From positions 97,412 to 161,411 of IMG/VR virus record IMGVR_UViG_3300036670_000258: 64,000 nucleotides of DNA; one strand, written 5' to 3'. The notes under the pieces were generated by a model. That model was not told where the DNA came from, searched no databases, and saw only the letters and a program-made list of their open reading frames with translations. The position numbers were made by a program, and so were the translations under genes. Below, one piece after another: positions 2,654-3,878 of this stretch. Position 1 is the first letter of the stretch; each line of letters opens with the position of its first letter. The stretch comes from a virus. Lineage: Duplodnaviria; Heunggongvirae; Uroviricota; Caudoviricetes.

Positions 2654-3284
2654 AATTTTTATTTATTCTAGTTATATTAAGTATTTGTATTTTGTTTACT
2701 ACTCAAGGTAATTAGAGGTGTGCCATCTAATTAAATCATATTCTTTAGTTTGTCCTAATGCGTGGGAAAATTTAATTCTCAGTTTTAAAAAAAAATTATT
2801 TTTGCAAGAATATAGGGGCCTAGGCCTCGATTCCCACCTAATACCCTAGGGTTCCTCCGAATACCGTCAAGTATCAAATTACCAGCAACATCAAATCACC
2901 TCTGAAAATTCGAAAGGGCCCGGGCATACCTATCTAATACCATGTAGAAATACCAATGTTTGAGAATTGTCATAGTGACCCCCTGCAACGACACCCATTT
3001 CCCACACCATATTGAGTCCTGCCTATGCATATGACAAATTGGCGGTGAATTCAATTCTGTAACGTTACATCTAAATCTGCGTGTCTTATTAGGTTCTATT
3101 ATATTAACCCTTCTACTATAATTTTTATATAGACTATAATTTGTTATAGTGCACCATACATCATACAGTTTCACCGCCCAATCAATGCCTACATGACACT
3201 CTTTTTGTTTTTAAAATTGACTAGTCAAACCTCAAATCACACTGAGACCTCAAAGTATCCGCGTCACAGCTCAGCTAACTTACC

Positions 3285-3340
3285 CCAAAGGCTTAAAGAC
3301 TTTAGTTATATTGACAGTACCCCATAATGTTTCAGCAATG
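3285..3340. repeat. dispersed repeat copy A (ccaaaggcttaaaGactttagttataTTGACAgt...aatgtttcagcaat)
   Basis: About 55 nt, near-identical to 58726-58780 apart from an 8-nt variable core. Contains a perfect TTGACA. Confidence 0.7.
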
Positions 3341-3878
3341 TGTGAATCTTTTTAAAATAATATCACATGTTGTCTGACGGTCACGTATGGGTACTTGAAT
3401 TCTGTAAGGTATCAAAGGTATCAAAGGTATTAAATAGGTGTGTCCTCATGCCTACATATCTATTAGTACATAAGAAGTCGAACAGCCCTTGAGGCCTCTA
3501 AAAAAATTCTGGGAATATTTTTCTACCAGGTACTATAGGCCTTTTAGGGGGTACCATTAGGGATGAGGTGTATCAATATTCTGTAGGCGTTCTGTACACT
3601 TGGAGGTGATGTTGTGATGTGAGGGATTACATGATGCGGATGATATTGGAAGGATCTTATGCGTTCTTTGAGTACTTAGAGAACTTAGAGAATTTGACAT
3701 GTGATGAGGGCCAATTGCAGGTATTTCTCACCTGGGAATAATGGTTGACTTTGGGTTAGGCGGAAAACCATGCCCTTTATTATAGATACTATTAATATTA
3801 ATTATAATTAGGCGCATTTACCTCGCATCACTTCGCGCCTCGCCGTGAATTTCTCTAGTCACCGCAAATTTCTATAGA

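Follow-up and report, generated by a model that had tools for sequence, protein, structure and literature searches.

A conserved non-coding island in a clade of uncultured phages as a candidate inter-operon control region

Why should a run of co-oriented phage genes be interrupted by 1225 nt of DNA that holds no credible gene? The question is raised by a stretch of 64,000 nucleotides from the IMG/VR virus record IMGVR_UViG_3300036670_000258 (Caudoviricetes; positions 97,412 to 161,411 of the record), here called the window, which is phage-like and AT-rich (31.4% GC overall) and carries a tRNA cluster, thymidylate synthase, a ligase, an endolysin and a collagen-like fibre protein. The region in question, the island (2654-3878, minus strand in the sense of the flanking genes), reaches from the stop codon of the gene at 3879-4472(-) to the start of the gene at 2432-2653(-) and is among the largest stretches of the window poor in open reading frames (ORFs), the tRNA cluster excepted. 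The initial annotation had offered three candidates: a large structured non-coding RNA, a degenerated mobile or intron-like element, or a cis-acting site of the pac or ori kind. The reading that we favour, tentatively and with somewhat less than even confidence, is that of an old, non-coding inter-operon control region, which would act via motifs in linear DNA or in unstructured RNA.

An ORF-free gap is found at the same syntenic place across a widespread clade of uncultured phages with genomes of ~160-200 kb, the hosts of which are possibly Bacteroidota. Exact-protein look-ups with the zinc-ribbon and 197-aa proteins encoded on either side of the island yielded a second lineage (L004-L009, L015 and L016), whose gaps measure 1169-1177 nt at ~81% identity; a fragment from a third lineage, L010, also turned up, and gap size stays between 1169 and 1225 nt across the close relatives, L001 included. 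Distant syntenic contigs, mostly from lake metagenomes, were found by searching with the ClpC-like protein, which has thousands of homologues. In these relatives (L018-L024) the gap measures 1094-1600 nt, the zinc-ribbon proteins are 46-58% identical to that of the window (66-73 aa across the set) and the gene order is a 143-153-aa gene, a 44-54-aa gene, the P/Q/T-rich gene, the ORF-free gap, zinc-ribbon, ClpC-like, ThyA and ClpP. Scanning IMG/VR with an alignment of the zinc-ribbon proteins added 36 loci on contigs of up to 200 kb. Two IMG/VR pattern scans recovered only the already-known close relative, a DNA-pattern scan of metagenomes gave only chance matches of 23 nt (L012-L014), and nucleotide searches of INPHARED phages, near and distant, returned no match. 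The nearest cultured phage is Flavobacterium phage immuto, with 47% identity in ThyA and without synteny.

Because the equivalent gap is syntenic in many phage contigs, the island is neither a recent pseudogene nor an indel of one strain; the gap goes back to the ancestor of a whole phage clade. The initial annotation had named an intact gene in related genomes as the finding that would speak for recent pseudogenisation, and for the core of the island no such gene turned up, only extra genes beside it. Nor is the island tied to the serine hydroxymethyltransferase (SHMT, glyA-like) gene, since distant relatives keep the gap without it: SHMT occurs only in the window and in the L004 lineages, inserted between the zinc-ribbon and ClpC-like genes, and in L018, L020 and L022-L024 the zinc-ribbon gene is directly followed by ClpC.

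The island encodes no protein. That it is free of genes, as first proposed from its sequence, was confirmed in several ways: no ORF in 2654-3878 is conserved, a Pfam search of the six-frame translation gave no match, and TAA, TAG and TGA are all present in all six frames at about random density. Since stop codons are randomly dense in all six frames, there is neither stop-codon recoding nor a relic reading frame, and stop-codon reassignment is ruled out on the same ground. The sole sizeable ORF (2896-3174, GTG start, 92 aa) is broken by -1 and +5 indels in the 97.7% identical record IMGVR_UViG_3300037295_000360. No ORF is common to the lineages except a 28-codon frame within an invariant block (block I), and the conserved 28-aa peptide that it would specify was rejected, its stop codon being lost in L001 and synonymous variation being absent. 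In the gaps of the relatives, neither gene callers nor our own ORF scans found a credible ORF.

Comparison of lineages shows that purifying selection acts more strongly on some blocks of the island than on the flanking genes, and that the intervening segments are replaced or recombined. Between the window and L004, the flanking genes have 88-94% nucleotide identity and a divergence at four-fold degenerate sites of 0.157-0.209, and the island is a mosaic, 76% identical overall and rich in indels and slippage repeats. There are no differences in the 100 positions of 3704-3803 or the 50 of 3504-3553; 3304-3353, 2754-2803 and 2654-2703 are 96-98% identical, and 3354-3503 and 3054-3103 are only ~40% identical, with indels and slippage repeats. 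The blocks 3704-3803 and 3504-3603 keep 97-100% identity between lineages that differ at 16-21% of four-fold sites. Across the island L016 shares 96% identity with L004, yet one of its variable cassettes, of 25-30 nt at ~4460-4490 (window ~2958-3007), is of the L010 type, which is evidence that segments of the mosaic have been exchanged by recombination between lineages. The gaps of distant lineages align at just 45-57%, near noise, and about a dozen short motifs still stand in the same order.

One conserved block, Block III, lies at the centre of the island and has the appearance of a promoter (Table 1). In an alignment of 12 diverged lineages, the columns of TGAAAC and TATAA do not vary and their distance is constant, and the sequence between them is free to vary; as both boxes are invariant at a fixed distance and the spacer is variable, this amounts to a bipartite promoter signature. 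In the window the boxes are a -35-like GAAAC (3329-3333) and a -10-like TATAAC (3305-3310), giving the arrangement GAAAC-N17/18-TATAAC at 3305-3333(-). The pattern GAAAC-N17/18-TATAAY has 5 exact sites in the window against 0.6 expected, a count reached by none of 100 shuffles, and an AAAC variant at 2671-2697 brings the class to six. Five of the six lie 17-39 nt upstream of a co-oriented ATG, the island copy being the exception. The element next to the zinc-ribbon gene (2671-2697) is itself conserved in the 12-lineage alignment, at columns ~930-965 (GAAACAAA...TAATATAA). The dispersed TTGACA repeat of which the initial annotation had seen a copy in the island is real, and the sequence at 3284-3339 has a single paralogue. 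We infer that Block III is a promoter read by an alternative or phage-specific sigma factor or RNA polymerase.

This class stands beside a much more frequent one. In the dominant promoter-like cassette of the phage, a GC hairpin plus T-run terminator (e.g. ACCCTGATTTTTTAATCAGGGTTTTTTT) leads directly into TTTTTG(a/t)TTATATTTACATATA, at ~20-25 nt from the ATG; TTATATTTACATATA has 33 sites in the window, among them 59241-59255, 55739-55753 and 5077-5091, against 2.6 expected, and none in the island. The description of the surroundings as a tight minus-strand operon is plausible, since the flanking genes are all on the minus strand and the nearest common promoter cassette upstream is that at 5077-5091. 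In the island, the -10 box matches the housekeeping TTGACA-17-TATAAT at 5 of 6 positions with no -35 match at legal spacing, a scan for sigma-70 and terminator consensus sequences stayed below shuffle expectation, and the TAnnTTTG motif of Bacteroidota is not enriched. The genes of the phage are without Shine-Dalgarno sequences. A dispersed repeat of ~100 nt represents a variant form of the dominant cassette (…AAACTTTAACAAAACTTTAACAC…TTAACCCAAAATTGATTAGATTTATATATAATAATTAATC…), with copies of 87-98% identity in both orientations at 5040-5146, 5900-5994, 6188-6300, 7929-8028, 9990-10080 and 10189-10295, and precedes small genes around the divergent region 5806-5992. A likeness of block I to this 100-nt cassette extends over 9-11 nt only and was taken as chance; a 17-nt match to 49910-49926 was likewise set aside, as it lies inside a coding region and is of low complexity.

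Downstream of Block III, the motifs follow one another in a constant order in all lineages: 2-3 direct repeats of the ..GGTCTCAC or ..CTCAC type, an A-run, a TGGGCGGYG box and an AT-rich patch that holds direct and inverted CTATAA-type repeats; then G-rich boxes (ATGGGTGT..TAGGG), 2-6 direct YGATATT repeats and a GC palindrome; and finally an A-run/T-run palindrome, the AATTAAATTTTCCCAC box and the second GAAAC/TATAAC element. Between 2860 and 3052 the conserved boxes are separated by replaceable segments of 15-28 nt. The repeats change in concert from lineage to lineage: the TGGTATT pair of the window is a TGATATT pair in most others and GGATAT in L018, and GGTCTCAC is swapped for CTCAC variants. 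Because the copies change concertedly, the arrays are probably binding sites for lineage-specific phage proteins. Other lineage-specific short repeats occupy the position of 3840-3877 in distant lineages.

Several of these sequences had been picked out in the initial annotation. Both palindromes it listed are present, ggcctaggcc at 2817-2826, kept in most relatives, and gggcccggg at 2916-2924, limited to this lineage; the complementary stretches acctcgc (3821-3827) and gcgaggt (3882-3888) are there too, though just 7 nt long. The tandem described as two copies of tatcaaaggta exists but is really a 9-nt unit, AAGGTATCA, repeated 3.2 times at 3406-3434 in a segment that is not conserved. Calling the island GC-rich was only partly right: at 37.2% against 31.4% in the window it is mildly enriched and ranks among the top 7% of segments of 1225 nt, but the peak (3150-4600) is centred on the adjoining 197-aa gene, and 2654-2800 has just 22% GC. 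In four lineages C exceeds G upstream of Block III and G exceeds C downstream of it, the latter being the sense-strand bias of the phage's genes.

Table 1. Coordinates of the island features, the sites of the putative bipartite promoter class and the neighbouring genes (positions in the window).
Feature	Position	Strand	Remarks
Two abutting 19-nt direct repeats, CTATAGAAATTTGCGGTGA / CTAGAGAAATTCACGGCGA	3840-3877	-	Immediately follow the upstream gene's stop codon
Diverged third copy of the 19-nt repeat, AATTCACCGCCA	3038-3050		
AT-rich quasi-palindromic tract, TAATTATAATTAATATTAATAGTATCTATAATAAA	3775-3810		
Upstream half	3504-3803	-	Rich in C and poor in G on the gene-sense strand; skew as low as -0.5
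9-nt repeat zone	3666-3692		Copy number differs among strains
Hypervariable spacer	3354-3503		~40% identity, indels; holds the 9-nt tandem 3406-3434
Block III, bipartite promoter-like	3284-3353	-	A-rich upstream part and AAGTCTTTAAGCC just downstream conserved
Direct repeats TTTGAGGTCTCAG / TTTGAGGTTTGAC	3224-3254	-	In relatives this place holds 2-3 copies (..GGTCTCAC or ..CTCAC)
A-run	3203-3217	-	
GC box TTGATTGGGCGGTG	3171-3189	-	
AT-rich patch	3113-3150	-	AAATTATAGT, two direct copies and one inverted (CTATAA-type)
Box GAATTCACCGCCAATTTG	3035-3052	-	
Box AATGGGTGTCGTTGCAGGGGG	2979-2999	-	
TGGTATT repeat pair	2934-2956	-	
TGATAC/GGTATT-type repeats	2860-2898	-	
GC palindrome GGCCTAGGCC	2817-2826	-	
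A5-TAA-T9 palindrome	2786-2804	-	
Near-invariant box AATTAAATTTTCCCAC	2762-2777	-	~110 nt upstream of the next start codon
Class site in the island	3305-3333	-	No start codon; ~650 nt without ORF downstream
Class site, TAAAC-N17-TATAAC	2671-2697	-	Co-oriented start 2653 (zinc-ribbon); 17 nt to ATG
Class site	6510-6537	+	Co-oriented start 6555; 17 nt to ATG
Class site	29246-29273	-	Co-oriented start 29208; 37 nt to ATG
Class site	34102-34129	-	Co-oriented start 34082; 19 nt to ATG
Class site	58756-58784	-	Co-oriented start 58716; 39 nt to ATG
Block III paralogue	58735-58790	-	In the 93-nt gap between genes 58810-59217 and 58510-58716
P/Q/T-rich gene, 197 aa	3879-4472	-	Upstream flank; 44.8% GC
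Zinc-ribbon gene, 73 aa	2432-2653	-	Downstream flank
Serine hydroxymethyltransferase (SHMT) gene	1144-2418		After the zinc-ribbon gene
ClpC-like gene			After the SHMT gene; extends past the window edge

The part of the island from Block III leftwards behaves as a module in the relatives. Upstream of Block III, the length of the gap varies from 70 to 900 nt; in L029/L030-type genomes this part shrinks to ~70-85 nt and the module is kept with its motif order. The extra genes seen in L026, L029 and L030 lie downstream of the intact module and do not replace it. Some relatives have a lipoprotein gene of 286-316 aa with a signal peptide and an S/T/P/R-rich tail (L029 2018-2920, L030 1673-2943, L053 1909-2769), to which L030 adds a gene for an 88-aa membrane protein, and these inserts sit between the module and the zinc-ribbon gene. 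The AATTAAATTTTCCCAC box is retained even where the gene that follows is the lipoprotein gene. L046 and L047 retain only a 3' sub-module of 3-6 YGATATT copies, the A/T palindrome and the TTTTCCC box. The P/Q/T-rich and zinc-ribbon neighbour proteins are without Pfam or PHROG assignment.

No large conserved fold was found in the island. Searches with Rfam 15, which covers group I and group II introns, GOLLD, ROOL and riboswitches, gave no match at gathering score or at E<=10, either in the island or in the gaps of L018, L020 and L022-L024. The z-scores of the minimum free energy (MFE) for the two halves of the island on both strands were -0.43, +0.20, -0.53 and -2.30; the last value, from the plus strand of 3301-3878, was discarded as a signal of structure, as it is not reproduced in the sister lineage L004 (-0.26 and +0.30). 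Sliding windows of 150 nt stayed within about +-2, the conserved blocks (z from -0.99 to +2.3) folded no better than shuffles, and Block III was significantly less structured than its shuffles (z = +2.3 and +1.7). Six diverged leaders had mean z-scores of -1.2 on the sense and -1.1 on the antisense strand, so that folding shows no strand specificity. RNAalifold predicted 62 pairs for three close lineages, of which 2 are compensatory, as in shuffles (covariation term -0.27 kcal); with four lineages it gave 0 to -7 kcal per 120 nt, and with 12, in a poor alignment of 41% column identity, 0 pairs. With no Rfam match, z-scores within noise and almost no conserved or compensatory pairs, the large structured non-coding RNA of the initial annotation found no support. 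A riboswitch linked to SHMT (ZTP, THF or glycine) was rejected as well, there being no Rfam match and the island being kept in distant relatives that do not have SHMT.

Under the control-region reading, Block III would start transcription at ~3297-3299 and direct it leftwards into ~650 nt of untranslated, G-rich sequence. This stretch may be a long leader or regulatory platform and would end at the second promoter of this class, located 17 nt ahead of the zinc-ribbon gene. One or more lineage-specific phage DNA-binding proteins would bind the repeat arrays, and these proteins may tune or time expression of the zinc-ribbon/(SHMT)/ClpC-like/ThyA/ClpP operon, which has its own proximal promoter. 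The right half (3354-3878) would be the trailing untranslated part of the upstream transcription unit, rich in C and poor in G, and, as it is without an intrinsic terminator, is possibly a zone of Rho-type termination. A scan of the minus strand of the island for terminators found none, the phage's usual terminators being clear elsewhere. The cis-acting site originally proposed finds support in its general form, as linear motifs comprising a promoter-like element, direct repeats and an AT-rich patch, and a promoter with a regulatory region is better backed than pac or ori in particular.

A number of observations weigh against this reading. The -35-like box matches no consensus that could be tested, a sigma-70 scan found nothing convincing in the island, and the promoter call draws on comparative sequence only. 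Block III is missing in two members of the clade (L046 and L047) and the whole gap in three very distant loci (L051, L059 and L060). A leader of 0.65 kb is unusually long for a phage, a promoter right before the zinc-ribbon gene makes the upstream one look unneeded for that gene, and no terminator was found to define the end of the transcript. Alignments of 45-55% identity are too poor to rule out local RNA helices. Finally, the module is kept before different genes, which fits an autonomous element, be it an RNA gene or an origin, at least equally well.

That Block III and the ~0.6 kb behind it form such an autonomous module, either a transcription-primed origin or a new long, protein-bound phage RNA, with arrays co-evolving with a phage DNA- or RNA-binding protein, is possible, though on the unlikely side. 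The adjacent, always-linked zinc-ribbon protein would be a candidate for the partner that binds the arrays.

As an origin activated by transcription (through an R-loop or primer RNA), which we consider unlikely, Block III would make a G-rich transcript over the arrays and an AT-rich unwinding patch, and initiators would bind the repeats as iterons. The layout fits: several families of short direct repeats hold their position and change concertedly between lineages, palindromic repeats occur in an AT-rich patch 150-200 nt beyond the promoter, the sequence that follows the promoter is rich in G on the RNA-sense strand in each of the four lineages tested, the module keeps its size whichever gene follows, and a DnaB/RecA-like ATPase gene is always within 1.3-6 kb. 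However, the island has no DnaA box (at <=1 mismatch), IHF consensus or GATC site, most lineages have just 2-3 copies per repeat family at irregular spacing, and the window's own GATATT-type repeats are degenerate (GGTATT/GATAC). No recognisable initiator gene adjoins, gene orientation does not switch at the island, GC skew at the scale of the window follows gene strand only, and module or promoter is missing in some members of the clade.

A second ORF-free stretch bears on the same question. A convergent gap of 974 nt (11401-12374) follows the DnaB/RecA-like ATPase gene and holds a perfect 10-nt tandem, GATATTTAGG, in eight copies (ten in all with two more, 11669-11797) as well as 8-nt TTAGGGAC repeats. 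The array at 11669-11797 shares the GATATT core of the island repeats of sister lineages and looks like a classical iteron array, a candidate origin by its sequence. A second array of this core next to the DnaB/RecA-like gene speaks for the origin reading of the island; at the same time, this tandem array at 11.7 kb is a more classical origin candidate than the island.

An independent gene for a long non-coding RNA of ~0.5-0.6 kb, starting from Block III and acting via motifs, protein binding or hidden local helices, appears somewhat more doubtful still. It would account for the gene-like layout, in which ~500-610 nt of non-coding sequence, constant in the order of its motifs, lie between one promoter and that of the next gene, for the retention of the module before different downstream genes and for the excess of G over C on the sense strand, as in the phage's genes. 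There are also hints of pairing: a weak covariation among the close lineages at 2800-3065 (score 0.191 vs 0.167, reached by 1 of 500 shuffles), recurrent GGG-loop-CCC mini-hairpins and, in the 12-lineage alignment, pairs of GAUAUU that could pair via G-U on the sense strand only. The leader z-scores, the RNAalifold energies and pair counts, and a share of compensatory pairs no greater than in shuffles all speak against such an RNA, which would moreover belong to no Rfam family and have no terminator; across the 12 lineages no consistent hairpin with U-tract precedes the TTTTCCC box.

We regard it as improbable that the island is a non-functional spacer, that is, the remnant of a decayed gene or mobile element or neutral DNA that happens to hold the next operon's promoter. 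In its favour, the island diverges faster than its flanks (76% vs 88-94% identity) with indels and slippage repeats, its right half has the C-rich composition of the P/Q/T-rich neighbour gene and varies in length from 70 to 900 nt, and the gap is missing in some relatives. Against it stand blocks of 50-100 nt with zero differences where neutral sites differ by 16-21%, about a dozen motifs that hold their order across islands otherwise ~50% aligned, the persistence of the gap across a deep clade, and the absence of a residual reading frame and of protein homology.

A large structured RNA, of a known or new family, or the remnant of a group I or II intron is very improbable: a long, non-coding, somewhat GC-enriched region in an AT-rich phage and one z-score of -2.3 would be in keeping with it, but that score was confined to one lineage, the conserved blocks fold like shuffles, no Rfam match or consensus structure (with 4 or 12 lineages) was obtained, and an intron would have no exon context, since the flanking genes are separate and complete. 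These flanks are two different genes, each conserved on its own, with no split host gene, and the island has neither terminal repeats nor a relic ORF of a mobile element; with no intron model matching and the gap being ancestral, the degenerated mobile or intron-like element suggested at the outset finds no support.

Some further features were noted in the window and its relatives. A cluster of 11 tRNA genes occupies 61250-63932 (minus strand), and an Rfam match to tmRNA_permuted (RF04321) falls at 61392-61542 with 54.8 bits against a gathering score of 47; ARAGORN called no tmRNA there. On the plus strand, 8371-10009 holds a tandem family of ~8 small genes (55-83 aa) whose products start with MKLGK… and contain four-residue repeats of the 'DSVRxSV' type, which explain a 12-nt periodicity (GGATTCAGTAAG); as this region does not align with the close relative L001, it appears to be hypervariable. 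The ClpC-like gene is unbroken, with 655-658 aa, in L022-L024 and in the lineage of the window. In several relatives (L018 8001-11591, L020 8001-11591, L021 3480-7070, L004 7622-11028) an inserted 388-aa ORF interrupts it, leaving ~430 aa on the N-terminal and ~372 aa on the C-terminal side; this looks like a mobile insertion of the homing-endonuclease or intein type; L018 also has a NUMOD3-domain ORF before ThyA.

If the control-region reading is true, the island and its counterparts, a conserved non-coding module of 0.6-1.6 kb, lie at a boundary of regulation in uncultured freshwater phages that form a large and widespread group, and GAAAC-N17/18-TATAAC would be a second promoter class beside the dominant terminator-promoter cassette, offering a handle on the temporal programme of expression. 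Should the module prove to be an origin or a new long RNA instead, the clade would have its first functional landmark. With conserved motif order amid divergence faster than that of neutral coding sites, the island offers a compact test of how repeat arrays co-evolve with the proteins that bind them, and it drops off the list of candidates for new ribozymes, introns and structured RNAs.

Compared with known systems, the island shares with GOLLD, ROOL, HEARO and group I and II introns the presence of hundreds of non-coding nucleotides in a phage genome with a tRNA cluster, and differs from them in having no Rfam match at the thresholds tried, no thermodynamic signal, and conservation that lies in linear motifs and direct repeats. 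With lambda ori, P1 oriR/incA and P4 ori/crr it has in common arrays of 7-19-nt direct repeats beside AT-rich DNA; from lineage to lineage its repeats vary together, as though they followed a protein that binds them, and an array with the same core is found elsewhere in the window (11669-11797). Unlike those loci, it has few copies, an irregular spacing of 14-24 nt and no recognisable Rep- or O-type initiator gene overlapping it or next to it, and the arrays are missing in some relatives.

In T7 and in the T4 origins oriF and oriG, a promoter precedes an unwinding element; in ColE1, 555 nt separate the start of the preprimer from the origin further downstream. The island resembles the T7 primary origin, oriF/oriG and ColE1 RNA II in that a promoter is followed by an untranslated region with an AT-rich patch and a G-rich transcript, and the distance from promoter to module end, ~0.5-0.6 kb, is that of ColE1 RNA II. 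The promoter-dependent origins of phages are much shorter, with downstream elements of 50-100 bp, and the likeness is one of sequence layout only.

The T4 middle and late promoters and the SPO1 promoters dependent on gp28 and gp34 are phage classes read by alternative or phage-encoded sigma factors or RNA polymerases. As with these short bipartite or single-box elements, those described here are few per genome, co-oriented with genes, placed tens of nucleotides before the start and unlike the majority promoter, which in this phage is the TTATATTTACATATA element with 33 sites against 6 for GAAAC-N17/18-TATAAY. They differ in that the island boxes fit no known or testable consensus and one copy faces 650 nt without a gene. 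Minor phage promoter classes, long regulatory leaders and promoter-dependent or iteron-type origins come closest to the island, although it fits the consensus sequences of none of them. The island is best filed as a cis-acting regulatory region of a known kind in an undescribed phage clade.

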